Of a stretch of DNA of 64,000 bases, positions 1-64,000 are shown in pieces. Source of the DNA: Picochlorum sp. SENEW3 (lineage: Eukaryota); NCBI GenBank assembly GCA_034226945.1, contig CP120458.1:496001-560000 (forward strand). Reading direction: 5' to 3'. How positions within the stretch are numbered: the first letter of the stretch is position 1; every line of letters begins with the position of its first letter. Below the pieces are notes generated by a model. The model did not search any database and was not told the origin of the DNA. It worked only from the letters and a program-made list of their open reading frames with translations. Both the position numbers and the translations under genes were made by a program.

Positions 1-840
1 TACCAGGTGAAGTATCGCCGTCGCCGAGAGGGAAAGACGGACTACAGAGCCCGTCTTCGCTTGTGTCGCCAAGATAAGAACAAATACAACACCCCAAAAT
101 ATCGTATGATTGTGAGATTCACCAACAGGGATATTGTATGCCAGATCGCCTATGCCACTCTGTCAGGCGACGTCATCGTCAGTGCGGCGTACTCACACGA
201 GTTGCCACGCTATGGCCTGAAAGCTGGACTCACAAACTACTCTGCTGCGTACTGCACTGGTCTTTTGTTGGCTAGACGCACATTGCAGAAGTTTGGGTTG
301 GACAAGGCGTATGAAGGTAACACTGAGGTTGATGACCTGGGAGAGGATTACACGGTGGAGGCGAACGAAGAGGGGCCAAGGCCATTCTACTGTATTCTTG
401 ATACAGGATTGAAGAGAACGAGTACAGGAAGCAAAGTCTTTGCTGCATTGAAGGGAGCTCTGGATGGTGGTCTTGACATCCCCCACAATGAGAAGAGGTT
501 TGCTGGATATGAGCCAGACGAGAAGGAGTTTGATGCGGAAATCATGCACAAATACATTTTTGGAGGACATGTAGCAGAGTACATGGAGGAAATGATTGAA
601 GAGGATCCGGAGAAATACCAGTCTCACTTTGCTGAGTACTTGAAGAATGGCATTGAGCCAGATAACTTGGAAGAGATGTACGAGTCTGTCCACGAGGCCA
701 TTAGAGCAGATCCATCTCCAGCTCAGAAGAAGGAGAAGTCCCAACCAACAAGTGGCACCAAGCAATGGAAAGCAAGGAAGCTCACCTACGACCAGAGGAA
801 AGAGAACCTCAAGGCCAAGCTTGCTGCTCTCATGGGATAA
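1..840 (+). CDS. RPL5: 60S ribosomal protein L5 (uL18), 5'-partial
   Basis: The frame is open from base 1 ([17 protein letters not shown]...[32 protein letters not shown]), the typical eukaryotic L5 sequence. Stop TAA ends at 840. Confidence 0.98.
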
Positions 841-888
841 GATGATATTGCTCTGCGTGAGTGATTGGGTTTATATATATACATATCA

Positions 889-893
889 TGTAA
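889..893 (+). promoter_or_regulatory. TGTAA poly(A) signal of RPL5 (green-algal type)
   Basis: TGTAA lies ~50 nt after the stop. The same motif follows other genes, e.g. 37371-37375 after RPL7 and 964-968 on the minus strand. Confidence 0.6.
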
Positions 894-1085
894 GAGTTTC
901 ATACATAGTCTGGTTCTTTCTTGGTTTATCAAAAAAAAACCATCCTCATGCATTTTCATAAAGTTACAATGGTAAAAAAACAAAATTGATGACCTGAATG
1001 TTGCCATGTGCATGTCAGATCTGGTCACCCAGCAGATCGTCATATTCAATTCCACAAGGCTAGCATGTACGCTCAGTTCATCAAC

Positions 1086-1739
1086 TCATCGATGCAATTT
1101 GTCTAGAATACTTTCAAGATTCTTTATGAGGATTGGAATGTGCACATGTGAACCGTCAGTTGTAGACGGCCCCTTTGCAGAGAAGGCTATCCTCTCGCCA
1201 TTCAGTGATACATGGATTTGGTCCTCTGGGCTCATCTCTTCCTCGTATTCTTCCCCTTCGACAAGCACTTGAGGAAAACGCTCCTCAATACAATCTGCCA
1301 TCTCAATGAAATCGTCAACACGTGCCCGATCATACCTTACCAACACAGTCGGTGGAGGAGGCCGATCGAGCATGGATTTTCATGCAAAATGCCGCCCTTG
1401 CTTTGCAAACATGCTGTCTATAGGCGACACTCTACTCACTAAAGGTGCTCTTGAGATGCCCTCGGTCGATACTATGCGCAGAGTTGGTGCAGGAAGGTGT
1501 CGTGAAATACTACCACACAAGGTTCTAAAACTGTGGCCGCGACATCCAAATGCGCCATCATTCGGCAGCTCTCGAGACGTGATATGATTTTTAATACCAA
1601 TATTCGATGCAGAAGAGGGTGTTGTCCCTTCAATGCCGGGGAGGTGAGAGAAAGCACGCAAGCTTGCGTTCCTCAAGACGGTCTCCTCAAGTGGCCACTG
1701 CTGAACCGACCGAACCAAAAGGCTCCGGTATCGATTCAT
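1086..1739 (-). CDS. Putative organelle-targeted protein with a C-terminal Rdx/SelW-like domain; in-frame TGA at 1380-1382
   Basis: ORFs 1380..2027 and 1086..1373 are in the same frame, separated by TGA-AAA-TCC. From ATG 1739 the N-terminus is R/S-rich and transit-peptide-like. The C-terminus (TVLVRYD...FIEMADCIEERFPQVLVEG) resembles the Rdx fold but lacks CxxC/CxxU. Confidence 0.5.
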
Positions 1740-1877
1740 TACCGGTATTATTTTATGACGACGCACTGTACAGCTTTGGGCCACAACCAAGACATCAAAA
1801 AGAGTTCTGCGGCCACGATTACGAAGAAAACGGGACGTCGGGGATTCTTGAATAAAAATGTATAAAAATTCTGTTGG

Positions 1878-1979
1878 TATCCCGCATGGGGTTCGAACCC
1901 ACGACCTTCGCTTGTATCCACCGCCACACGAGGTACTTGCGGTCCGGAGAGCGACGCTCTTCCACTGAGCTAGCGGGAC
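1878..1979 (-). tRNA. trnR-CCG: tRNA-Arg(CCG) with a 30-nt intron at the canonical 37/38 position (intron 1914-1943)
   Basis: Full cloverleaf: acceptor GTCCCGC/GCGGGAT, D-arm GCTC-AGTGGAA-GAGC, anticodon stem TCGCT/AGCGA with CT-CCG-G, T-arm GTGGG-TTCGAAC-CCCAT. A TTTTT Pol III terminator follows at ~1864-1868. Confidence 0.95.
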
Positions 1980-2301
1980 TTGCGAGCGGTGTCCAGTCCC
2001 CAGACATGCTGGTACGGACACGCACAAAAATCACTCGATATTGCAATATTTCAACGAATAGGATGCTCAGACTTATGCGCCCTGCTCAAAACGACGGGTT
2101 TTGAAGCCATTTAGCACTTGTAAGGGTATGTAAATAGATGCATAGAAGGATTCCTGTCACCTGCCATCCATAGAACTCATGAAATCCTGGTGCATATCTG
2201 TGAGGATGTTTTCACAGGACAGAGACCCAGCAGCAGAGTAGTAGTAGCAGTAGTACAAACAAATACAAGTATATATTATATCACACAAGAAGAAGAATCA
2301 A

Positions 2302-3438
2302 CTACTGTTTCTGCTCATTGCCTTTCAAGAAGGAGATGAGTGACTCAATCTCACTTTGCGAGAAGTTGGACACTAATTGGACCAAATCCTCAGAAGGCTT
2401 GCCAACGGGAATCTGCACAGGTGGGCTGATTTCAACGCCACTCTTCGACTGCTGGTTCAGCAACGTTTCCAATATTTGCCTTTGCTCGCTGTTCAATGAA
2501 CTTGAAGCCGAGGTGAACGAGAGGTCCAGAATATCTGATGAATTCCCATTCCCCATCATCATCCTCTTGGAGTTGGAGGATGAGAATCCTCCTGGAGGCA
2601 ATAAATTTTGCGATGCAGACTGCAACAAACTGTAAAAGTCTCCCATCGCCATTTGCTGTGATGGGGTTCCAGTCATCCGTGGAGCTCCCAGCGGCCAACT
2701 CGATAGGTATTGCCGCATCACATCAGAAGCCTCGAGAATGTCCTTGGGAAATATAGAATGACTGGTATTCACACCAGTTGATTTGGTATTGTCCAGGGAC
2801 GAGTGTGACATCTGACCTGCTTTGAAAAGATTATGATACCGCGAGTCTTTGGGCAACAATGGGTCAATGTGCCTCCTCAGCATGTCTGCTGGCCCTGCAG
2901 AGAGATCATCCGTGCTCCTCTGATCAAATGGCGTGGGAAGCGAGCTTCCACCATCTAACGTGGGTACACCTGCACCTACATGTGTTTGGTCACGAGTTTG
3001 CATTGCAGGTTCACGTCGCTGCCTCACAGAAGACCTCTCTGATGAACTCGCCTCAATCATCGTGTGCGTCCGTGTACCCCGCTTCACCCCCACAAGAGTC
3101 ACTGGAGCCGCATCATGAACCAGACTAGGGTGCTTCCTGCACAATGCACTCCATCTATTCTTCGCTGCATTATCAGTCCGATCCCCAAATCTTCTACTAA
3201 TCTCTGTCCATTTATTCCCCAGCTCCTTGTGGTACCGTATAAGCTTCTGGTCCTCCTCCTCAGACCACGTCGTCGTCTTTGCATTGATCGTCAACGCATT
3301 CTTCCACCTCCGCCGACACTGCTTCCCCGTTTTCGTCTCCATTTCTCTCGCAATGTCAGCCCACTTATTCTCCCCAATCCTCCTCACAAGCCCCCTGAGT
3401 TTCTCATCTTCTTCCCGTGTCCAAACCAACGTGGGCAT
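2302..3438 (-). CDS. R2R3-type MYB transcription factor
   Basis: Two MYB repeats (WTREEDEKL...W..IA...KTGKQCRRRW; WSEEEDQKL...GNKW..IS..FGDRTDNAAKNRW) followed by a low-complexity C-terminus. Start taken at MPTLVW. Confidence 0.92.
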   Translation of the reverse strand: MPTLVWTREEDEKLRGLVRRIGENKWADIAREMETKTGKQCRRRWKNALTINAKTTTWSEEEDQKLIRYHKELGNKWTEISRRFGDRTDNAAKNRWSALCRKHPSLVHDAAPVTLVGVKRGTRTHTMIEASSSERSSVRQRREPAMQTRDQTHVGAGVPTLDGGSSLPTPFDQRSTDDLSAGPADMLRRHIDPLLPKDSRYHNLFKAGQMSHSSLDNTKSTGVNTSHSIFPKDILEASDVMRQYLSSWPLGAPRMTGTPSQQMAMGDFYSLLQSASQNLLPPGGFSSSNSKRMMMGNGNSSDILDLSFTSASSSLNSEQRQILETLLNQQSKSGVEISPPVQIPVGKPSEDLVQLVSNFSQSEIESLISFLKGNEQKQ

Positions 3439-3970
3439 TTGATACACCTCGCTTGCTCTCACACACGTATATAAATCTGCACATACAGTGCACAATATTG
3501 TATCGAATATGCCCAGTCGTCTCGTTGATTCCCAACCCCCCTACCCACGTGAAACAGAAACAAACCACCCTCGGCATCCCCATGCCATCTGTCTGTAACC
3601 CACCTTGAAAGTTTTTAATAAATCAATGCTCCTAAATATCACGCAAGGGTAATAAAGGCCTGTTTCAATCGGAAATGGAATGAAACTTTCGCACTGGTTT
3701 CATGAAGTCGACAGTGCCCAGAGATCTCCTTTCTTTGTACATCTATAATCAAAATAATGTATATAAAATGCATCAACCCAGGCAATGCATTGTTGTATTT
3801 GGTAGAACAAGGCCAAGATCTCAGAAGAGTCTGGGTACATCACCAGGATGGCTGTGAGTATTTGTAAGAGACGAGCATGACCTATTTTTGTGATACTATT
3901 CATGTATCTGTCTTCTTGTCTCTAACGAAGCAGCAGCAGCAGCAGAAGGAAGAAGAAGAACCAGAACAAG

Positions 3971-5231
3971 ATGTCTTCTGCTGACACGGAAGCAGTTGAT
4001 GACCAAAAAGTGTCTCAGTTTTGTGCAGTGACTGGAGCAGATGTGTCAAAGGCTTTACAGGTACTACAAGCGACAGATTTTAATCTGCAAGATGCTATAG
4101 AGCTATTCTTTGCGAGTGGAGAAGGGCAGGGTGGGGTTTCACCTGTGTTGAGGGAGGAGGAACGAGCGACGCAGTTACAAACGCATGGCGGGGAGGAGGT
4201 TCGAGCACCCATGCCAACCAAGGTTGATCGGTTGTATGGGGATGCTTATGGGACGGAGGTGGGTGGGTCTGGGCGTGAGGGTACGTCGGGTGCTTCCATT
4301 GTGGATGCATTCAGAAAGAGACTGGAGGAGCCTGGGAGCTCGCATGGCGATGGCAGGCTGTCTTCGATGTTTGAGCCTCCGAGAGGGATTCTATGTACTG
4401 GTGGGTTTGAGCAGGCGAAACAAGAGGCGCAGAGGAGGAATCGGTGGTTGGTGGTGAACATTCAGTCTCCATCCAACTTTGATAGTCATCGGCTAAATAG
4501 GGATACGTGGAGGGATGGAACCATACAGGCATTGGTGGAAGCGTATTTTATACTTTTTCAGACGTATGATATCGCGGAGCAAGGGCAAGAGTTGATGGCG
4601 TATTATGATGTAGAAGAGTTGCCTGTGATTTTGGTTGTTGACCCAGTGACTGGGGCTCCCATGAGGAGGTGGTATCGGTTTATAGAGGCCGTTGATCTTG
4701 CTGAGAATTTTATACCTTTTACGGAAATTTCGTTTGATGATCCTCGGGCAGCTCGCTTGGCAGCCTCGTCTATGAGGAAGAGGCATGGTGGGGTGAGTGT
4801 TTTAGAATCTGGAGGGCAGGAGGAATCATTTCCTTCCATGACAGAGATGGACGAAGATGAAGAATGTCCCGAGGAAAAGGCCCAGGAGGCAATGGAGTCC
4901 CTACCACCTGAGGAATCAGGGAGTGGAACATGTAGGATTGGTATGTTGTATTTGTCTTGTGGACTATACATGTTGTGCAATCAAACCCATGTTACTGCTC
5001 GCAGGTATCCGTCTGCCAGATGGCATGAGGATTCAAAGGCGATTTCCAACGAACATGCCTGTGTCTGTTCTGAAAACATGGTGTATATCTGAGAATCTGG
5101 ATGCTGCAGCAGGGAAACCTTTTGTCCTCGTGCGAGCAGAACCAGGCTCGTTGCCACTCGACGATTGGTCGAGGTCCATCGATGAAAGCGGTGTTGCAAA
5201 CTGCATGCTACAGATGAGATGGCACGAGTAA
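3971..5231 (+). CDS. UBA-UAS-UBX domain protein (PUX7/UBXN7-like); intron 4941-5004
   Basis: N-terminal UBA-like region, UAS domain (WLVVNIQ...FDSHRLNRDTW) and UBX domain (RIGIRLPDG.RIQRRF) joined across a GT..AG intron. Confidence 0.92.
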
Positions 5232-5496
5232 CCTTGACGAGGGACACCAAGTGCATCATGCACAGCGTATTCGCATGCAACATGCAGGTCCCATCAAATA
5301 GACATGTTGATGGGATGAGAGCGTCGTGCATGTGCGCGTCGAGGACGTCGTAACAATGCACGAATCCTGCAATTTATACTTGCGAAAGGCTCAGCAACAG
5401 CATTAAAAATTCATATTAATCGGTACATATAGTACGGAGATCGATTGACCTTGTAAGGGTCGTATTATTCTTGTCCTTTTACCAACGAATCAAACG

Positions 5497-53006: not shown

Positions 53007-55318
53007 ATGCAGTGCAATGCAATTCTTCTCCTTGCACTTATCGGTACGGCTTCAGAGCATTCACACGCAACTCCAAACAGCATTCTTAATTTTGATTGAT
53101 TTCTGCTGCAGGTGTGGTTCAGGCTGCTCGTCAGATAACGTTTCCACCACCTGTGCAACCGATTGTTCCCAGCCCACCTCCACCTCCTCCTGCTAGCCCA
53201 GGAGTAGCGCCTGTAACATTCCCCTCCCCCGGATTTGTGTTTTCAATGATTGTGAAGAACACGAATCAAGCAAGTTGGACAGTTGCACAGGAGGCGAAAT
53301 TCTGCGATGATCTTGTTTCCGTGAATGCACCAGCCAACACTAAAGAATCTTGTGAAGCAAAGTTTGCTCAAAGTTGGAATGGAACTGATGCCCTTATCAA
53401 TGGCTTCTTCTTCTACGAGTGGTTATCAACCCCATCAGTTACCCAGATCCAGCTCGCAAGCGCTCTCCGCGACCAAGCAGTTGAGACCTTGAGACAGAAT
53501 GCATCAAGCATCCTTGGCCAAAACTTCCCAGGATCTTATGCGAATTGTGCCTGTGATGGTCCAACAGCCGTGGTTACAGCTTCAGCCACGTCAGACTTTT
53601 CCTACTCAAAGAATCTAACAGTTATTCCAGGTCCAGTTCAATGTGGAGCAAGATTGACTTATAGCACTGCACAGAGTGATGCTGTGATTAATCAGGTCGG
53701 GGTGGATGATGGATCAACAAATCTTGCCAACATTGGCAAGTTCTGCTCAACACCAGCTGTTGTGAATGGTGTATCTGGTATTCCAGGACAAGGCTCTTGC
53801 AGGCAGTATGGTGTGGTAGCCACACCTGTTGGAACTGCACGTGCCACTGCTACTGTCACAGTGGCAGGGGGATCTGTTCAAAACCCTGGTACTGTTACCG
53901 ATGGAGGTAGCGGGTACACATCCGCACCTGGTGTAACGTTGTCAGCACCCAACCGTGTTGGTGCCACTGCATCTCTTTCTTGGTCCGGAAATTCCGGGTT
54001 ACTAACAAATGCAGCCACTCTTTCCACAGCTACAAATGGCCCTTATGCCACCACCCCAACAGGGGTGATTGGGGGGGGAACATGCGTGGATACATCAGAC
54101 ACATACTGCACAGGAGGGTCACTTAGAATCAATGTCCCAGGAACACCATCCACCCGAACAGGGCAGGTTTGTACATCAGATGACTTCAACAGCGCAACCG
54201 GATGCAATGGTGGAGCATGTGTTGTCACAGTAACAGGTGGAGCAACATCATCCGTGACCTTCCCAGGCGCAACAGGTCAGGTCTACTGCACCTCAACCCC
54301 AACTATTACTTTGGACAACAATGCTGCACTGCAAGCAGCGCAACAAGCTACTGCAGAGGCGAGATTTAGTAGCACAACAAATGCAGTGACTGCTATTGTT
54401 GTTACAGGTGCAGGATCTGGATATCTATCAGCACCAACAGTCACAATTGCACCCCCAGGCACTGGTGATGTCGGAAAATTATGCGCCCCAACACCGATAA
54501 CCGGTATTGGAGTCGCAGTAACGGAAGGAATTACCACGACCGGAGTGTGCCAACCCCTTGGGCGAGATACACAGTTTAACAGAGTTTGCAGCACTCCAGC
54601 TGTTGATGGAGGGTTATGGAGCGCATTGAACACAGCAACTTGCAATGTTATCAGTTCTTTCAGAAATCAGCCATCTCCTACAGACACAAACAAATGCGGG
54701 ATTTTAACACAGTCGTTTGTTACAAGTGTCATACCACCACCACCACCAGCTCCAGCTCCATCTCCAGCACCAAAGCCAGCTCCATCTCCAGCACCAACCC
54801 CATCTGCCCCAACTCCAGCTCCAACCCCATCAGCTCCAGTAGTCTGCTCATACAGAGGAATTTACGAAATCATCCCACTCTATGCCCCATGCAACAGATA
54901 CAGAATCGCCTCTGGAACAGACTCTGACTGTGACTACAACTTGGTCACCCTCAGAACAGCAGGACAGGTTGGACAGGGCAAGATTGCCAGACTCCACTGG
55001 GAATTCGCCACCATTGCCGAAGACGGATTGTCTGTCCCAACCAATGTCTTGGCCAGAGCCAGACGTGGATGCACCAACAGATTCTTGGCTGCCCCATCCG
55101 ACCCAACCACCCTCAAGACTGGAGGATCCTCTTGGAAGTGGCAGTTTGTTCCATGGCCAGGAGCGATCAGTTGCGAGGAGGTGAATGTCATCTCCCAGAA
55201 CAGACTCTCCACCACCGCCTTCTTGCAGGTGCCAAGGTCCTGTGACCGCTTCAGATACAATGCTACTGATGGAGGACGTCAGAGATTCAGACTCAGAAGG
55301 GTCAACTTGCCGGTCTAA
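53007..55318 (+). CDS. Secreted Cys/Thr/Gly-rich cell-surface protein with Pro-rich linkers and GSGY repeats; intron 53044-53111
   Basis: Spliced signal peptide MQCNAILLLALIG|VVQA, PSPPPPP and PAPSPAP linkers, two GSGY.SAP.VT repeats and a Cys-containing C-terminal domain. Confidence 0.85.
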
Positions 55319-56415: not shown

Positions 56416-57051
56416 CTAATTATCATTGTCTTGATTATATGCACTCATCTTTCTCACTTGCTCGAGTGAAAAGCCATGGGGGAAAATCTCAGTTTTATTT
56501 TTGACAGAGTCTTCTCCTTCAGCAAGCACTTCTTCGAGAGTCGTTGGATATACTATAGCATATGGGGGAGGGACAACGTCCAGGTGAGAATAATCTCGTA
56601 TATTGGTGCCGTGGACATGCCATGATGTGATGGATTTGCTGGGGTTGCTGACTTGATATCCTGCTTTGAGCAATTCGTAGGCCAGTCTGTTGTCAATGCC
56701 TGGTTTGCCTAGGGTGAGATTGTTGTTGTTGAGTGCTGACAATAACATGCTGTTTTGTATGTGTCCCTGAAATATCCACGTGTCCTGGCTATCTGGTCTT
56801 TTGAACAGCTTTCCATTGCTATTATCGTGCCTGCTCAAGGCATACACATGATTTTGGGGCAAAGATTTTGCCGTCTTGATGGTATCATCAAAGAATATAT
56901 CAGAATTGGCGATGATGTTTATTTTGTATGGCTTGAATGCGTTGAATATATCCGAGAAATGTCGAGAATCTATCTGTGTGTAATGCTTGAACAATGCTGC
57001 ATTTATAAATATACATCGATTGAGGTATATATGAGCGTCATTGGTGCAGAA
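56416..57051 (-). CDS. Glycosyltransferase-like (GT-A-type) protein of a family common in giant viruses and some microbes; 5'-truncated or spliced
   Basis: IIANSDIFFD, ALSR, SQDTWIF, LGKPG.DNRLAY, GY.V.NPS..I...H.H....R.Y. No ATG near the 5' end of the open frame. Confidence 0.6.
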   Translation of the reverse strand, partial: FCTNDAHIYLNRCIFINAALFKHYTQIDSRHFSDIFNAFKPYKINIIANSDIFFDDTIKTAKSLPQNHVYALSRHDNSNGKLFKRPDSQDTWIFQGHIQNSMLLSALNNNNLTLGKPGIDNRLAYELLKAGYQVSNPSKSITSWHVHGTNIRDYSHLDVVPPPYAIVYPTTLEEVLAEGEDSVKNKTEIFPHGFSLEQVRKMSAYNQDNDN

Positions 57052-57456
57052 TCAGAGACGTGCGAGGCCGGAGAAGCTCGAGAGGACAGTTGCCCACGGT
57101 CAAAGAAGGCTTTTGAACGGCCTCATATGGGTGTTTCACTGATGATAACAACATCGTCTCTGTTATCATGAGGCCCCTGATGTAATAAAAACATAGAAAA
57201 AAGGGAGTGATAGTATGTAGTGTGTATATACTTGTTGTACATGATATTGCAACAGTGTATGTTTGTATACATTTTAAATCGTTTGGCTGACAATGCCAGG
57301 ACAGTTTGAATAGTGTTCAAACGCACGTGCGATTGTCCTTGTTTCTCAAGCATATTGCGCTTTTTTGTGCAGTTCAAGCAATACTATCGCTTTTAATATA
57401 TAAAATATCAAATTTGGAGGGATTTTGAGCCACAAAAAGGCGAAGCAAGGGATTTC

Positions 57457-58725
57457 ATGCCAACTTTTGCCCCGAATGCGAGTGCGGACGATGTGCCTGC
57501 GCGTGAGTTCGGCGGCACCGATCGCGCGTATTCGGATCATGCCCAAGAAATAGATTTATATATAGTGAATAATGATACATGTCGCCCAAACAAGGCGGCA
57601 CCGCCGAGAAAATTTTTCAAACCTCGGGAAGAGGAGCCTCCCAGGAAGTACCCAAGACTGGAAAATGGCCAAATTTTGGCCAAAAATAGCCTTCCTGAAG
57701 GGTTTCCGGAGCTCATCACTGCCCTGTATAGTGACGTCAAGGTGTGGTATGAGAAGAGCAGAAAGATGGAGGGAATGCACGAAGAAGAAAGGTCAAGGTG
57801 TGCCTCCCTGCAGGCTCAAGTAGCACAGCTAGAGGGTGAGTTGTCCAGGAACAGGGCCAAGGCCCAAAAGGTGGTCGAGCTGGCTTCGCCCTTGGTCATC
57901 ACATCGCAACATGCAATCGATGCATGGCAAGAGAAGACCCGGTACCTGCAACAGTGCATCCTTGGGCTTGGATCCTTTGTTGCAGAGGAGGCAGAAGCGG
58001 TTGACCACACCCCTGCAGTTGGAGTGGACGAGCCAGCCATGGACGAAGCATCGGGGGGCTTGCACGACCACATTGAGATATGCAGTTTCTACGGGACGTC
58101 AGTAGCGGGGACAGAGCAAGCTAATGTTGTCAGCACGAAAGGGTTAGAGTTCATGTTGCAGCAACGTGATGGGGACAGGGCCACAGTGGACCAAACCATC
58201 CATCTCTTCAACATCAAGGTGGGCGAACACGCAGTGATGGACAAATATGGACGTCGAATTTCGAATGGATTCTGTGTACTGCAATACGACCTGCAAAGGT
58301 GTCTGAGGAAAGCGTTTGGTGACCCTGCTGTGAAGAATTTTGGGAACCATACACAGAAGACAAACAAGTTTGTGTTGCCAAAGGCAGTACTGGTATCAAA
58401 ACTCACAGATGTGGCCGTCGATGAACTTACATCAAAAAAGATAATCATGAGGAATAAGCCGAACCAGGAATTCTGTTTCATTCCGTATGCAGATGTTGAG
58501 CATGTCCTTACCAAGTTTGCCCAGCACAACTGCAGGCAGCAGCAGACCACAGCAAGGCTCCTCCTCCTGCAGTCGATGCTTGATCAGTTCTATCGACGCT
58601 ATTGCTGTGGTGAGGAGGTTGTTGAAGGCCAGGGCGAGGCCGTGTCAGGGGATGGAGGCCAAGAGTGGTCTGTTGAGAGAACTGATGCTGTGTCCTGCCT
58701 GCCAGAACCTTCACATGGCACCTGA
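57457..58725 (+). CDS. Intact 422-aa ORF convergent with the KDZ transposase (coiled coil plus possible DNA-binding domain); likely element-encoded
   Basis: Uninterrupted ORF, more GC-rich than its left flank, overlapping the transposase 3' end by 15 nt. Confidence 0.65.
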   Translation: MPTFAPNASADDVPAREFGGTDRAYSDHAQEIDLYIVNNDTCRPNKAAPPRKFFKPREEEPPRKYPRLENGQILAKNSLPEGFPELITALYSDVKVWYEKSRKMEGMHEEERSRCASLQAQVAQLEGELSRNRAKAQKVVELASPLVITSQHAIDAWQEKTRYLQQCILGLGSFVAEEAEAVDHTPAVGVDEPAMDEASGGLHDHIEICSFYGTSVAGTEQANVVSTKGLEFMLQQRDGDRATVDQTIHLFNIKVGEHAVMDKYGRRISNGFCVLQYDLQRCLRKAFGDPAVKNFGNHTQKTNKFVLPKAVLVSKLTDVAVDELTSKKIIMRNKPNQEFCFIPYADVEHVLTKFAQHNCRQQQTTARLLLLQSMLDQFYRRYCCGEEVVEGQGEAVSGDGGQEWSVERTDAVSCLPEPSHGT

Positions 58726-59940
58726 GGACGGCCAACCGTTCCTCCTCTGCTTTCGTTTCTGCTCGATATACATTCTTTTAAGCTTGTGGTAATTCCAATG
58801 ACACATGAATGGCTTCAGGAGCGTCATGAACGATTTCTGTGACATTCTGCTCATCATGGCCTTCAGGTTCTTCAAGGATGAGTTGTTCTGCTCTGCAACT
58901 TGCGTGTTTAACGCCTGTAACCACTTCTCCTCGTACCCTTTAATCATATATCCAAGAATGCATGCTTTGTGGTTCCTCCAATGGAACGCATCCACGAAGA
59001 ATTTGGTGTGCATGAAGAACAATGGTGCCCTGCTCAAGCAATAGTCCTGCAAGTTGCATGCATTGTCGTAAATGACGTATTCCGGGGCTTTTCTGAGATA
59101 TTGTGTCATGAATGCAAATGGTTCTTTCCTCCCTTCTGCTTCTTTGATGATGACGGATGCATACACAAAAATGCTCACACAGGATGGTGAACACCCCTCC
59201 TGTCCTGTCTCCAGGCTTGCAGAACGCGTGCTCGCACGCATCTTTCCTCCTGTCAACGCTCTCTTCCTCTTTCATCGAGTCAGCCTGATAGTGGGGCTTG
59301 GATCGGACGCGCTGCAGGCCTGTCAGGCCAGAATGCAGGTATGATCCATCCAGAATTGATGGTCCCTGAGGTGGGACACCACTCCCAAGCTCGCTTTCCA
59401 GCGTGTATCTATCATGGAAAGCATTTGTACTCTCGATTCGGGTCACTAATTCATTCAGAAGATTGCCCCATTCCGCCGGAATGTGTACGCAAGAGTCCCC
59501 AGGCCGCTTGATGGTCAACAGCAGTTTGAACAGGGGTGGGGCCTCCTTGCTCAGCTGCGACAGCACACCACTCGGGACCGTGCGGCTCTCCAAACATTCC
59601 TTGAGTAAAATACAACTTCTCAACGTGATGTAGGATACAGCGGCGGACTCGGAGGCGAGGCAAAACATGAAGTCTGCCAGGCTGGTAAGCCTCTCTGAGG
59701 AGTCCCAGGCTTTGGCTTTAGCAAACGCCCATTGCAGGAAGGAATCCACATTCCAAAGGGCTCCAAGTTGTCTTAAATGTCGTCCTTTATCCCTCCAAAA
59801 TTCTTCCAGACCAACAGCGTCGCGAGCCTTCCTGATCCGCTCCTGGAACTGCAGCAACAGCCTAGCAAGGGAAAGCCTAGCTTTCCTTGTTCTTCTGGCC
59901 TTGTCTACATTGAGGAACGACCTATCCCTTTTGCCCCTTC
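58711..59940 (-). mobile_element. KDZ (Kyakuja-Dileera-Zisupton)-type transposase, frameshifted at ~59170 and 5'-truncated
   Basis: C.H.F...RTGGVFTILCEH, AEGRKEPF, VIYDNACNL..YCL.R.P.FF..T.F.VD.FHW.NH..C, NTQVAEQ.NS.L, split across ORFs 58940..59857 and 58711..59256. Confidence 0.82.
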
Positions 59941-60145
59941 ATCGCTCCACGGATTTTTAGCAAAGTCTCCTGTCGATAGAGGTATGCACGAGCATACATA
60001 TAATGTTGCGCTTCATATGTAAAAGTACCGACAACACGCATAATATTCATTAGTAGTGACAATGCGGGGCACATGGTATAGTTCTAACCCTGCGCACCTC
60101 GTGCCAACAGTGCATGCAGTGCGCGACAAAAGGTGCTTAGGTATG

Positions 60146-60375
60146 TGTTAGCTGTTGATTTGCAATAGCTTGAGCTCAGACTGCTTGGGCAGGAACTCAA
60201 TGATATAGGTTCAGAACACGTGTGTGCGTTCTATCACTTTAGATGTTAGTACAAGTTACAATAGTTACTTGTTTATATATCTTCCTTGACTGTTATTGTC
60301 GTCGCAATGCTTATATACCTTGGCAACCATCATGAGTAAATGGCTGTTCTAATTTAGATGATTTAAGACGTAACA
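60146..60375 (-). repeat. 3' LTR of the Gypsy element (TGTTA...TAACA); left boundary may instead be 60244
   Basis: On the minus strand it begins TGTTA immediately after a purine tract, contains TATATAA and TGTAA, and has TAACA candidate ends at 60244 and 60146. Confidence 0.65.
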
Positions 60376-60390
60376 TTCTCCCCTAACTTC
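60376..60390 (-). other. Polypurine tract (PPT) of the LTR retrotransposon
   Basis: GAAGTTAGGGGAGAA abuts the TG of the LTR on the minus strand. Confidence 0.7.
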
Positions 60391-60958
60391 AAATGCAAAC
60401 GTCCACGCTTTGCTAAAGACAATGAGAAGTGACAATCCACAGGAAAAGAAAACCTTGTTGGAAAAAGAAGACCATATGGATGTCTGGAATGAATTTTTTT
60501 TAATTGCTGTGCATTCTCCCTATGCAACAGAGAATGATGTCCACACTCATTCAAAACAAAAAGATAGAAAATTCAACTGGAGAATACCTGTAAAGGATGG
60601 ATAACAATGGAGAGAGATGAGCCATTGACCGACAAAAGAAGGCGTCCCCTCTGATGTGACAAGGCAACCAATCATCCAAAATCATGAAAGAAAAGAAAAG
60701 TGAACGGGGCCAGCGTTCATATGTTAGTGTCGACACAGAGATATAGTTGCAACAGAGATCAGAAAGAAGACTCAATTCGAGTTTCAGATGCATCTAATAG
60801 TAGTACTCAACAAAGGAGCATGATCTCAGAATAATAGTAAGAAGAATAGCGCTTTTTCAGAGTTCAGAAACTAACTCGATTTAATGACGTCTTAGAGAAC
60901 TGTAGTCTCTTGAAGTTGTTGCATTCTTATGCTTTGATGCATAAAAGATTCCATGAAC

Positions 60959-63900
60959 TCAGGTCACTGGAATTCTAGTCGCTTGTCTTTTCGACGGATC
61001 ACGGGGTACAACTTGTCTTGATTGATGTTGCTCATTTTGTTTTTCCCAACGTGATTTCTTATTTGAATCGTTCGATTTTCTTGACAGAGAACGTTTCTTG
61101 CCACGTACAACTTCTTTATGAGGAACCTCTTTACCTTGATGATCTTGATCTTTATGGCGATCACTCGAGTTCATCTCACCTGTTTTGAGCACAGACTTGG
61201 GTCTGGCATCAATGCTCGCTTTAGCGGCAAATAATTTCTGGACTTGTTCATTGAAAAAGTCCGCACCAGCATGAAGCAAAATCAAATTTTCGGTGCATTG
61301 CATGGTCGTACCATCAGTAAGACGAACCGTATACCAGTCTTGTTGTTTGACTCGGCGATGAGCAACAATGGCTTGCATTTCAAAGCACTTTGGGGTTTTG
61401 TCAGTATTATACCTGCGAAACCATTTAACATGTAACACTGGTCGAGCACGACGCATTGTCTGAATCAACTCCAAGTCTAATTTGGATTTAGGAGTGCCAG
61501 AATCACACAAATCAGTCCAAAAGATGAGAGCGGTGTTTGGCGAAAGCATACGCTGAATAGTAAAAGGACCAATGAAACGTGGAATGAGCTTTGGCAACTT
61601 AATTGCAGATCCCAGATGCAAATATTTCACATTCAAAAGAACACGATCACCTGGCTTAAAGTTGTGCTTTTTGAATTTTCGTTGACCAGACACAATCTTT
61701 GTCATTTGATAATGGTCTAAAGCTTTTCTGGCGTGTATCTGTGCTGTTTGAATGTTCTGTAATCGAGTCTGCACATCTGTATTATGAGGATCAAGAAGTA
61801 ATTGGCGCTCAAATTCCATAGGGAAGACTAATTCACGAACATGATTCAGAAAGAATGGGGAATGCTTCGTTCCTGTATTCACCGACGAATTCAACGCAAA
61901 TTCAATCATAGTGAGCTTATCAGCCCAATTTTGCGCATGACGAGTATCATTGTCGGAAGGATGCATAAGACAGCGCAATTTATTTAGTATGAGCCTATTA
62001 TATCGTTCCACTTGACCATTTCCTGCTGGATGATATGACGTTGTACGGCTCACTTCGATTTGGAAACACACATTCAGGCGAGCAGAAAAGTCATTCACGA
62101 ATTCACTACCTCTATCCGAAATGAAACGATGCGATATCCCAAAACGCTTGAAAACATGATGAAAATACAGGTCAGCAATCTTGGCACCAGTTAACCCTTT
62201 CTTGGAGGTAGCGACAATGACCACGAATTTGGTCAAACTGTCAACAAACACAACAATACAATCCACTATCTCCACATGACCAGAAACCGACAGTTCGACA
62301 GCTGGAAAACCTGAACAAACGTCCATATGCACTGTATGAAAGGGATGTGGAGGAACTGGCAAAGCCTGAGCATTATTAAACGGCTTTTGAGTACTGTCCT
62401 TGGCACACTGGCACACATGACAACGTGAGACAAACAAATGACACTCATGAAGATGATGCTTCCAATAAAAATGACGACTTAATCTGGCTTTTGTTTCCTG
62501 GTGTGCTCCATGGACACACTGCTCATGAAACTGACGAAGAATATTTTGTCTGAGAGCATCAGTCTGTGGGCAATTAGGAATGATGATGACCTCACGACCT
62601 CGATATTCACCTCTCAGCAATCCATTCTCCAATCGACAACTCCTGGGGTCGATTTTACGACACAAACGACTACATGTGCTGTAAGGTGCTCGTTGAGGTT
62701 CAAGCACACAACGCAACAAAACAGATGTCCAGGGATCTTCCGAGTACGACTTCCGAATCGTATCACACATAAACTGAATTGGATCCGCCAGCTCGTTGGG
62801 CTGTTCCGACACGGCTAGCAAATGATGAGGCTCGACATCTGAGGAGGGTAGAGTCTGTGCCTGATGCACCCCATTCGGCAATCTGGATAAAGGATCAGCG
62901 ACCTTGTTCTTGGCACCTGGCAAATGACGAATAATTAATTGCCCATCTCGATACTGAGATAGCACTTGCAGGTAGCGAACTTCTCTTCGGCCCTTGAGAA
63001 GTTCTCGTTGTGTGAGCATACGAGCGGCTGCGGCGTTATCTGTTTCGACAATTACCTGGGGGGATTGTGTGAGGAATTTGGCCCACTGTTTGAGACAATA
63101 CACAATAGCTAAAGTCTCCTTCTCACAAATACCATATCTCGCTTCGGTATCAGTGAACTTGTGGGACAAGTACTCTATGGGCTGCCAGCCTCTACCTGTG
63201 GGATTCTGCATCAAAACAGCACCGAGGGCTAAATCACTGGCATTACATTGAATCAAAAACGGCTGAGTGGGCTCTGGCACAGCGAGAACAGGCGCACTGG
63301 TAATCAGCTTCTTCAATGTTTCAAAGGCTATTTGAGCTTGTGCAGACCACACCAGCGTTTTACCTTTCAGCAGCTCGGAGAGAATGGCGGCAATCTTTGC
63401 ATAGCCCTGACAAAACCGTCGATAAAAGTTTGTGAGACCCAAAACTGAGCGTAATTGAGATAGGTTCTCTGGAGGCTTCAATTGCTGGAAGGCTTGCACC
63501 TTCTGAGGGGTAACTTCTATTCCATTGGCAGAAATAACATGTCCAAGCCATTCCAAACGCTCAAAGAAAAAGAAACACTTGCTCGAATTCAAATAGAACT
63601 GATACTGACGGAGACGTTCGAACAGAATTCGTAAAATTTCAAGATGGCGTGGGACACATTCAGTACCTATGAACATGTCATCCATATAGAAGAACACTTC
63701 ACCGGTGGCAAGCAGATCCCCTAAAATTGAGGCCAAACGCCTAGAGAAATGACCTGGTGCTACTCGAAGTCCAAACGGTAGCACTTTAAACATGAACCGA
63801 CCTATCGGCGTGATGAAAGATGACAGTTCCATAGACTGACGATCTTGCAATCGGAGTTGCCAATACCCACTTGCACAGTCAAGCGAGCTGAGAACCTTGC

Positions 63901-64000
63901 GATGGCGAATCTTGCTGAGGAGATATTGAATAGGTGGCAAATCCGAAGCTTGATCCACGATGAGCTTATTAATCGCACGATAATCAACTACCATGCGCAT
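60959..64000 (-). mobile_element. Ty3/Gypsy LTR retrotransposon pol (RT-RNase H-integrase-chromodomain), continues beyond the window
   Basis: RMVVDYRAIN, LD..SGYWQ, LPFGL, YMDD, FLIQC[N]AS, NKVAD.LSR, HHCC zinc finger, DDE (MD, SDRG, QVER), GPF and a chromo-like FEMQAIVAHRR....Y.V. Confidence 0.96.

Follow-up and report, generated by a model that had tools for sequence, protein, structure and literature searches.

Transposons of the KDZ superfamily are known to carry genes in addition to that of the transposase, above all the TET/JBP genes of fungal elements (PMC12730594), and the known KDZ clades have terminal inverted repeats (TIRs) as well as target-site duplications (TSDs) of 7 or 8 bp (PMC12730594, PMC11343200). 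In Cryptococcus, an antisense RNA and two proteins with no known function belong to KDZ1 (PMC11343200); Ectocarpus and Chlamydomonas harbour giant KDZ elements that contain accessory genes (PMC12477816, PMC8226300), and the Harbinger-type Nuwa elements in turn combine a transposase with a Myb/SANT DNA-binding protein (PMC12730594). In this study, a KDZ-type locus of the trebouxiophyte alga Picochlorum sp. SENEW3 was analysed within a 64-kb window, i.e. the 64,000 nt of contig CP120458.1 (assembly GCA_034226945.1) from position 496,001 to 560,000 of the forward strand, with positions counted from the first nucleotide of this stretch. At the locus, what is left of a minus-strand transposase gene overlaps tail to tail with an intact plus-strand gene for a protein of 422 amino acids (aa), called here the partner. 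The window copy is almost certainly a dead, non-autonomous remnant of a cut-and-paste transposon of ca. 5.1 kb, which belongs to the KDZ superfamily, is present in multiple copies in Picochlorum-type algae, and has a convergent two-gene design, the partner being intact.

Outside the KDZ superfamily, En/Spm is a two-protein system (TnpA/TnpD), and the second protein of Harbinger is required for transposition. The Picochlorum element shares with PIF/Harbinger and En/Spm a conserved second gene, encoding according to structure prediction a probable DNA-binding protein, beside a DDE transposase; it differs in the transposase superfamily, which is unrelated, and in the predicted fold of the partner, which is Bro-N/KilA-N/DHD-like and not Myb. 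The fungal TET/JBP-carrying KDZ transposons, reportedly first described by Iyer et al. in 2014, resemble the Picochlorum element in the Pfam KDZ domain, the large transposase of ca. 1050 aa, the co-mobilised second gene, and apparently the N-terminal Cys clusters, CxC4 being matched by distant relatives of the Picochlorum element. In contrast to these fungal elements, the second gene in Picochlorum codes for no dioxygenase of the TET/JBP type and matches no Pfam family, and the element is small (5.1 kb), with convergent genes overlapping by 15 nt in a trebouxiophyte host.

The KDZ1-3 elements of Cryptococcus neoformans are likewise mobile KDZ elements with genes for proteins of unknown function, along with RNA antisense to the transposase, but they are 9–11 kb in length with a 236-bp TIR (KDZ1) and 8-bp TSDs (PMC11343200), whereas the Picochlorum element has an imperfect terminal similarity of ca. 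19 nt. Similarly, the giant algal elements belong to the KDZ family and often contain accessory transcribed genes and pseudogenised transposases, yet they extend over 10–30 kb with many genes and nested insertions (PMC12477816, PMC8226300), unlike the compact Picochlorum family with its one fixed partner. Among the open-access papers listed, no report was found of KDZ, Zisupton or Kyakuja elements in Picochlorum, nor of any eukaryotic DNA transposon with an accessory protein of Bro-N/KilA-N-like type. The partner would represent a kind of helper not yet described for KDZ transposons, and its predicted structure makes it a probable DNA-binding protein.

Intact relative and transposase of the element

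The metagenome scan (174 stretches) returned a sole locus, contig L001 (5347 nt), in which the partner gene (457–1725, plus strand) meets an intact 1051-aa transposase ORF (1711–4866, minus strand) with the same 15-nt overlap (1711–1725) as in the window. According to blastn, the remnant (Table 1) is 95.4% identical to L001 over 2777 alignment columns, including 11 gap columns, and base-by-base comparison of the breakpoints showed that the similarity ends left of window position 57170 and right of 59937. Similarity search found no other part of the L001 element elsewhere in the 64-kb window. Each of the two genes occurs there only once, and nothing from the 5-kb region is repeated in the rest of the window.

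Contigs of four public sequencing runs were aligned on L001 for depth, ends and copy number. The run set X1 (ca. 13 Mb) gave 53 contig pieces, of which 8 were at least 99% identical to L001, 22 were 95–99%, 21 were 90–95%, and 2 were less than 90% identical. The summed depth of the DNA runs dropped sharply outside ca. 180–5192, and two RNA libraries, made in different studies, had contigs that departed from L001 at 5294/5295 with differing letters. Because of this drop, the exits of the RNA contigs, and the breakpoint between window and L001 at 168, the element is placed at ca. L001 168–5294 (5.13 kb). The left flanks of the window copy and L001 are different; the two flanks of L001 do not match each other, possibly owing to a chimeric assembly, and the window copy has no right end. 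The termini of the element are alike over ca. 19 nt, with 13 matches and a 2-nt gap.

The 10-mer ATTTTGAGCC of the window copy (57422–57431) is found in L001 at 420–429 (plus strand) and 4996–5005 (minus strand), i.e. upstream of both genes and in the same orientation relative to each. With an estimated 0.1–0.2 such cases expected by chance, the sharing is a lead only, and the 10-mer is a candidate for a shared control or binding site of the two genes, as judged from its position.

Two local irregularities were observed on L001. All four runs depart from it at 1992 and rejoin at 2015 with identical letters, and the window sides with the runs; L001 is locally aberrant at 1992–2015, through either an assembly error or a rare variant. 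One X1 contig joins L001 position 379 to 5239, omitting 4859 nt, with 30 letters on the shorter side of the join, and may represent an internally deleted derivative of ca. 270 bp, similar to miniature inverted-repeat transposable elements.

In the window, the transposase-like reading is split over two minus-strand frames (58940..59857 and 58711..59256, from the ORF list and three-frame translation). When the full-length transposase was searched by tblastn against the whole 64-kb window, only residues ca. 636/642–1051 were recovered. The window copy is without residues 1–641, i.e. 61% of the gene, and the missing part holds all invariant Cys/His clusters together with the first candidate catalytic Asp; the initial annotation, which had noted two lesions in the transposase, is to be corrected in this respect, as the copy is a 54% remnant and not a near-complete element. 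One of these lesions was placed precisely: the frameshift, noted as two missing nucleotides at ca. 59170 in CEH[G]FVY, is a 2-nt deletion at window position 59171 relative to L001, falling exactly on the Gly codon, and it is not a simple change in homopolymer length. The second, an in-frame TGA at ca. 59940, does exist (ca. 59941), but it lies just past 59937, where similarity to the intact element stops, and therefore marks the truncation and not a nonsense mutation within the gene. The other indels against L001 are an in-frame 3-nt deletion at 59327 and small compensating indels at 59002–59013.

The KDZ affiliation, proposed earlier from the sequence, was confirmed by Pfam. The 181-aa C-terminal piece in the window matched PF18758 (KDZ) with 27.1 bits against a cut-off of 26.6 (E-value 4.1e-06), and the 1051-aa transposase of L001 with 36.6 bits (E-value 5.2e-09), the matches spanning only profile positions ca. 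70–217 of 217. Seven out of nine transposase relatives scored above the KDZ cut-off (31.5–39.2 bits), the remaining two being P0020, with CxC4 only, and P0056, with no match. CxC4 was matched by two of the nine, both distant (P0019, 30.5 bits; P0020, 27.4 bits), and no Pfam CxC domain was obtained at E-value ≤1 for the transposase of the element itself. The latter contains the invariant residues C267, C269, C282, H284; C335, C345, H347; C442, C444, C483, C490; and C599, C602. Moreover, D612, D934 and E992 were invariant in an alignment of 12 sequences (L001 numbering), within the motifs LIMDGTS, VIYDNAC and AEQNN, respectively, and they are on this basis a candidate DDE catalytic triad, of which D934 and E992 are kept in the window copy.

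Among viral contigs, 51 pattern stretches were checked for the transposase and none was related. The scan of prokaryote genomes resulted in one contaminant-like contig, L002 (26 stretches, 42% identity, residues 1–918), which stops before the transposase tail and is uninformative on the presence of a partner. In L002, the main ORF of this 42%-identity subfamily is preceded, at positions 1–386, by a short exon at the 5′ end and by a gap resembling a GT..AG intron, an arrangement which agrees with the N-terminal extensions of P0071, P0056 and P0101. Some transposase subfamilies may accordingly not be intronless, and the start of the L001 ORF may be incomplete.

Partner family, gene linkage and predicted structure

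The partner ORF of the window (57457..58725) is undisrupted, as was stated in the initial annotation. It differs from the L001 partner by 41 mismatches over 1269 nt without any indel, corresponding to 16.7 synonymous and 24.3 non-synonymous differences and a ratio of non-synonymous to synonymous substitution rates (dN/dS) of 0.41. The adjacent left non-coding region has 23 mismatches over 287 nt (8.0%). Eleven homologues, full- or part-length and 49–97% identical, were identified among 4615 candidates, and because of these the features of the partner are not due to chance. A profile search against 1.84 billion representatives returned 8 proteins, all of the partner family, the most distant being P0114 with 28% identity, and no relative outside the family; in viral contigs, none was found among the 22 pattern stretches checked. 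Full-length ORFs (405–426 aa) are kept down to 28% identity, which together with the dN/dS value indicates constraint on the partner. The partner is a conserved, transposase-linked and lineage-restricted protein.

In the P0001 partner cluster, 8 of the 15 members listed (40 of 51 read) are 47-aa fragments on contigs of 2.5–13.7 kb. These contigs probably consist of host flank and the left end of the element, ending where the copies diverge; if so, the element has inserted at several sites.

Linkage of the two genes was observed repeatedly. In SENEW3, partner P0114 (PSENEW3n2_00000907) is next to a transposase of 1086 aa which belongs to the cluster with 55% identity (00000906), and the adjacent PSENEW3n2 locus tags 842/843 represent a partner and a transposase. 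P. renovo has two pairs of adjacent gene models (NNA_008759/008760 and 008786/008787), and MMETSP Transcript_3515 holds both ORFs complete (g.7119, transposase; g.7120, partner). Members of the partner and transposase clusters gave 19 exact matches in the size of their longest contig, and the window-type transposase P0144 was present on 19 contigs, its partner P0124 on 18. Altogether, linkage was found in four subfamilies, the transposases of which are 100, 78, 75 and 55% identical to that of L001, and the co-occurrence of partner and KDZ transposase, suggested earlier for examination, is borne out by a multi-copy and linked family instead of a single-copy, unlinked host gene. In addition, the SENEW3 tags 00000906–00000908 are consecutive and comprise a 55%-type transposase, a partner, and a window-type transposase (908), so that elements of two subfamilies are situated side by side or nested.

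The tail-to-tail overlap of 15 nt, noted already in the initial annotation, was confirmed at 58711–58725. As judged from protein tails alone, 11 out of 12 partner tails from the 49–97% identity subfamilies have codons compatible with an overlap in the same 15-nt register, which only 32 or 128 of 160,000 tetrapeptides would fit. The tail of P0008 is incompatible with the overlap, and both proteins of the 28%-identity subfamily are outside that register. Both genes are covered by contigs from oligo-dT RNA libraries of two studies, which cross the junction on L001 without a splice joint (X15, 542–1927; X16, 1484–1992; X17, 1442–1775 and 1766–1992). Those of X17 cover most of the transposase as well, and the gaps of X15 and X16 over parts of the transposase should not be taken for absence.

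The partner is composed of an acidic N-terminal tail, a basic and proline-rich motif, a long helix, a linker, a basic domain, a C-terminal helix, and an acidic tail. In the motif, P49, K52, F54, K55, R57, E59, E60, P61, Y65, P66, L68, E69 and G71 are invariant or nearly so in 13 sequences with the 28% subfamily included, and it is possibly a nuclear-import or protein-contact peptide. Residues 83–179 were modelled as one helix, in accordance with the coiled coil proposed earlier, and this helix is a probable dimerising coiled coil. The C-terminal region, also recognised in the initial annotation, was indeed conserved, with 33 invariant columns in 17 family members, and the core of the domain has an isoelectric point (pI) of 9.4 versus 5.6 for the whole partner.

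The AlphaFold2 (AF2) model of the full-length partner was poor, with a mean predicted local distance difference test score (pLDDT) of 48.1, and structure search with it returned coiled coils only. The model of aa 196–385, for which 17 sequences were used, those of the 28% subfamily among them, reached a predicted template modelling score of 0.70 and pLDDT values of 71–90 per 10-residue block over model residues 51–180. When this model was compared with 48,161 PDB chains in a fold search made without Foldseek, the eight top rows were the N-terminal domain of CpGV Orf22 (4ye7, score 6.4, with 104/104 residues aligned), Dachshund (1l8r, 5.2), Bqt4 (6a6w, 4.7; 5yc2, 4.5), Mbp1 (1bm8, 4.5), SnoN (3eq5, 4.4), Mbp1 again (1mb1, 4.3), and Swi6 (2xfv, 3.9). 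Bro-N/KilA-N/APSES/SKI-DAC folds lead both PDB-based rankings (8 and 6 top rows) with nearly full coverage of the target domains. Foldseek against PDB gave nothing at E-value ≤0.001 for the partner domain. Foldseek against the BFVD viral models resulted in 50 rows, including 30 of Bro or Bro-N, 1 of KilA-N, and 4 of "Repressor domain", with a best E-value of 4.2e-3. The closest predicted folds of the basic partner domain are those of Bro-N/KilA-N of large DNA viruses and phages, of the APSES proteins Mbp1, Swi6 and Bqt4, and of the DHD of SKI/SNO/DAC; with modest scores and a consistent ranking, the model suggests that aa ca. 245–385 fold like these DNA-binding domains. The same folds had been put forward, as a weak guess of SKI/DAC- or BRO-N-like character, from the sequence pattern.

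At the sequence level, no match to Pfam Bro-N, KilA-N, APSES or Ski_Sno was obtained for any of the 17 family members. The window partner matched no Pfam family at E-value ≤0.1, the L001 partner had three sub-threshold matches only, all to unrelated families of coiled-coil type, and the full-length partner gave no usable match against Atlas. The earlier statement that the partner lacks TET/JBP motifs holds for the whole family, as no TET/JBP family was matched by any of the 17 members; the models show instead a helix together with a small alpha/beta domain resembling DNA-binding ones. In PHROGs, the matches were weak and without function, phrog_21661 being found for 12 of the 17 members on the C-terminal helix (best E-value 7.3e-05). 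Language-model look-up of aa 240–385 in turn pointed to clusters of PF28514 (DUF8422) in 30 of 30 named matches (0.95–0.96, 157–159 of 256 features), all eukaryotic (arthropods, chordates), which serves as a lead only. DUF8422 was not among the Pfam matches of the partner, although the Pfam copy searched may not include it, and no mention of it was found in the open-access literature. The partner domain may belong to a wider eukaryotic family of small domains.

Feature coordinates and surrounding sequence

The features identified in the window are listed in Table 1. The G+C content of the window varies between 40 and 50% per 2-kb stretch, mostly between 45 and 49%, and published Picochlorum genomes have 44–46.5% (PMC6141220); G+C content and named relatives both indicate a host of Picochlorum type.

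Table 1. Features of the KDZ remnant and its right-hand neighbours (window coordinates; L001 numbering where indicated).
Feature	Position	Strand	Remarks
KDZ-type DNA transposon remnant, two-gene	57170..59937	.	2768 bp, ca. 54% of the ca. 5.13-kb element; corresponds to L001 168–2942
Left terminal non-coding region	57170..57456	+	terminus GAGGCCCCTGATGTAAT... and upstream region of the partner; 10-mer ATTTTGAGCC at 57422–57431
Partner gene, intact, 422 aa	57457..58725	+	no stop or frameshift
Basic, proline-rich N-terminal motif, conserved	57592..57702	+	aa 46–82, pI 10.0
Long predicted helix	57703..57993	+	aa 83–179; one helix in AF2 model
Basic C-terminal domain and C-helix	58189..58611	+	aa 245–385; Bro-N/KilA-N/APSES/SKI-DAC(DHD)-like predicted fold
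Convergent coding overlap, 15 nt	58711..58725	.	partner ...SHGT*, transposase ...SGAM*
Transposase remnant, C-terminal piece	58711..59170	-	L001 residues ca. 900–1051 and stop; tblastn residues 896–1051, 93% identity
Frameshift	59170..59172	-	2 nt missing relative to L001, Gly899 codon of CEHGFVY
Transposase remnant, middle piece	59172..59937	-	L001 residues ca. 642–898, other frame; tblastn residues 636–898, 93.5% identity
Sequence unrelated to KDZ element	59938..60958	.	ca. 1 kb between truncation point and Ty3/gypsy pol stop
Ty3/gypsy-type pol ORF (reverse transcriptase, RNase H, integrase)	60959..64000	-	at least 1013 aa, runs past the window end

The pol ORF matched the Pfam families RVT_1, RT_RNaseH, RT_RNaseH_2 and Integrase_H2C2 above cut-off, and rve and SH3_Tf2-1 below it. 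The sequence between this ORF and the KDZ remnant is probably the 3′ end or long terminal repeat (LTR) of the retroelement, and the KDZ element was likely truncated via this neighbour. A clean LTR junction was not confirmed: no canonical TG..CA end was found at the junction of the two elements, and a second LTR is absent from the window.

On the left side, a 192-aa ORF without Pfam match (56416–56994, minus strand) is located immediately beside the KDZ element and is presumably a host gene next to the insertion. Further to the left, a 740-aa ORF (53096–55318, plus strand) has proline-rich stretches and much Thr, Ala, Ser and Gly, likewise without Pfam match; it may encode a cell-wall or surface glycoprotein.

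Role of the partner

On balance, a two-gene KDZ remnant with a DNA-binding accessory partner is the explanation we favour for the locus as a whole. As to the function of the partner, we consider it about equally likely to be right or wrong that it is a core accessory protein encoded by the element, probably a dimer formed via the helix of ca. 100 residues, with a Bro-N/KilA-N/APSES/DHD-like DNA-binding domain which recognises DNA of the element and acts on the transposase by recruitment, import or regulation. In such a mechanism, the partner would dimerise through the helix, its basic domain would recognise the ends of the element or the motif shared upstream of the two genes, and recruitment, import or regulation of the transposase would follow, in functional analogy to TnpA of En/Spm or to the Myb-like second protein in PIF/Harbinger. 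In the dead window copy, the partner gene, being intact, could still act in trans. Since it persists between subfamilies with transposases of only 55% identity, the partner looks like a core component, and "cargo", the class suggested in the initial annotation, is for the same reason probably the wrong word. A more far-reaching version is tentative and rather doubtful, namely that the Picochlorum elements are obligate two-component KDZ transposons in which a virus-type Bro-N/KilA-N-like domain, dimerised by a coiled coil, serves the zinc-cluster/DDE transposase as the subunit for end recognition or import, the conserved 15-nt overlap couples expression of the two genes, and dead partner-only copies are modifiers in trans.

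Several observations weigh against a DNA-binding core component. Neither a clear TIR nor a subterminal repeat array suitable as binding site was found in L001, where the imperfect terminal similarity and the one shared 10-mer were the only such features. The partner domain matched 0 Pfam families at E-value ≤10, and ties to a DNA-binding family are absent at the sequence level; profile search of the partner against PDB returned a bZIP coiled coil alone (E-value 0.17). The partner evolves at roughly double the rate of the transposase (55–58% versus 75–78% identity, and 28% versus 55%), and it was not detected for transposases of 40–45% identity (P0016–P0018 and many P. soloecismus proteins), where it may be dispensable or too diverged to be detected. 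The RNA libraries may contain DNA, and their contigs give no strand or transcript ends. Finally, with one frameshift per ca. 1.2 kb in the adjoining remnant, a partner gene without lesions is expected by chance in about 1 of 3 cases by our estimate, and the intactness of the window partner is no evidence of selection on this copy.

The main rival to a co-factor role is that the partner is a transcriptional regulator or repressor, acting in copy-number control or autoregulation and not needed for cutting and pasting, with dead partner-only copies tuning the family in trans. We hold this to be fairly unlikely, although the present data do not separate it from the co-factor model: the predicted fold would suit a regulator equally well, phage "Repressor domain protein" occurs in 4 of the 50 BFVD rows, P0114 weakly matches a phage "transcriptional regulator" family (E-value 0.012), and both the position of ATTTTGAGCC upstream of the two genes in the same relative orientation and the lack of a detectable partner in the more distant transposase subfamilies are in line with regulation, whereas the shared 10-mer is within chance expectation and no operator-like repeats were found. 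A host-directed cargo, i.e. a factor that counters silencing or acts on chromatin, with the TET/JBP genes as functional analogues, is improbable. Fast evolution of the partner, as often seen in conflict proteins, would fit such a factor, and SKI/DAC and APSES-type domains work in chromatin and transcription; however, the partner has no enzymatic or TET/JBP signature, its fixed position and fixed overlap over four subfamilies suit a core gene better, and no relative outside the element family was found as a possible donor. Precedent for cargo comes from the fungal KDZ elements, which have captured TET/JBP genes repeatedly (PMC12730594).

More improbable still is that the convergent 3′ overlap itself has the main role, by producing double-stranded RNA that feeds self-silencing or by coupling the expression of the two genes. 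A coding overlap of 15 nt forces the mRNAs to overlap, its register is conserved, the junction is bridged by the RNA-library contigs of X15 and X16 and both ORFs are in one MMETSP transcript, and antisense RNA is annotated over the transposase of Cryptococcus KDZ1 (PMC11343200). Nevertheless, these contigs are strandless and possibly derived from DNA, the 28%-identical subfamily does not fit this register, and conservation of the partner protein would be left unexplained. As for domestication of the window partner as a host gene retained while the transposase decays, an option raised in the initial annotation, the intact gene beside a dead transposase and the dN/dS below 1 against L001 speak for it, but the divergence of only 3.2% includes evolution on active lineages, intactness is unsurprising by chance as estimated above, and the partner family has multiple copies, invariably in the company of the transposase, with no syntenic single-copy orthologue known; we give this very little credence.

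Few superfamilies of eukaryotic DNA transposons are as poorly understood as KDZ, and its extra genes besides TET/JBP are without a proposed role. A compact and apparently intronless 5-kb family with two genes, residing in small algal genomes that can be transformed, provides a simple setting in which to study KDZ accessory functions. Should the partner prove to be a DNA-binding subunit, KDZ would be a two-component system like Harbinger and En/Spm. The KDZ superfamily would thereby have its first defined second subunit, and the Bro-N/KilA-N/APSES/DHD fold a new use, in cut-and-paste transposition of eukaryotes; such a transposon setting may bear on how the domain moved among viruses, mobile elements and the transcription factors of hosts. 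As for annotation, the Picochlorum gene models of 422 aa now called "hypothetical protein" can be renamed transposon genes. The copy in the window is ordinary genomic debris, and the family it revealed is a tidy and testable two-gene KDZ system.

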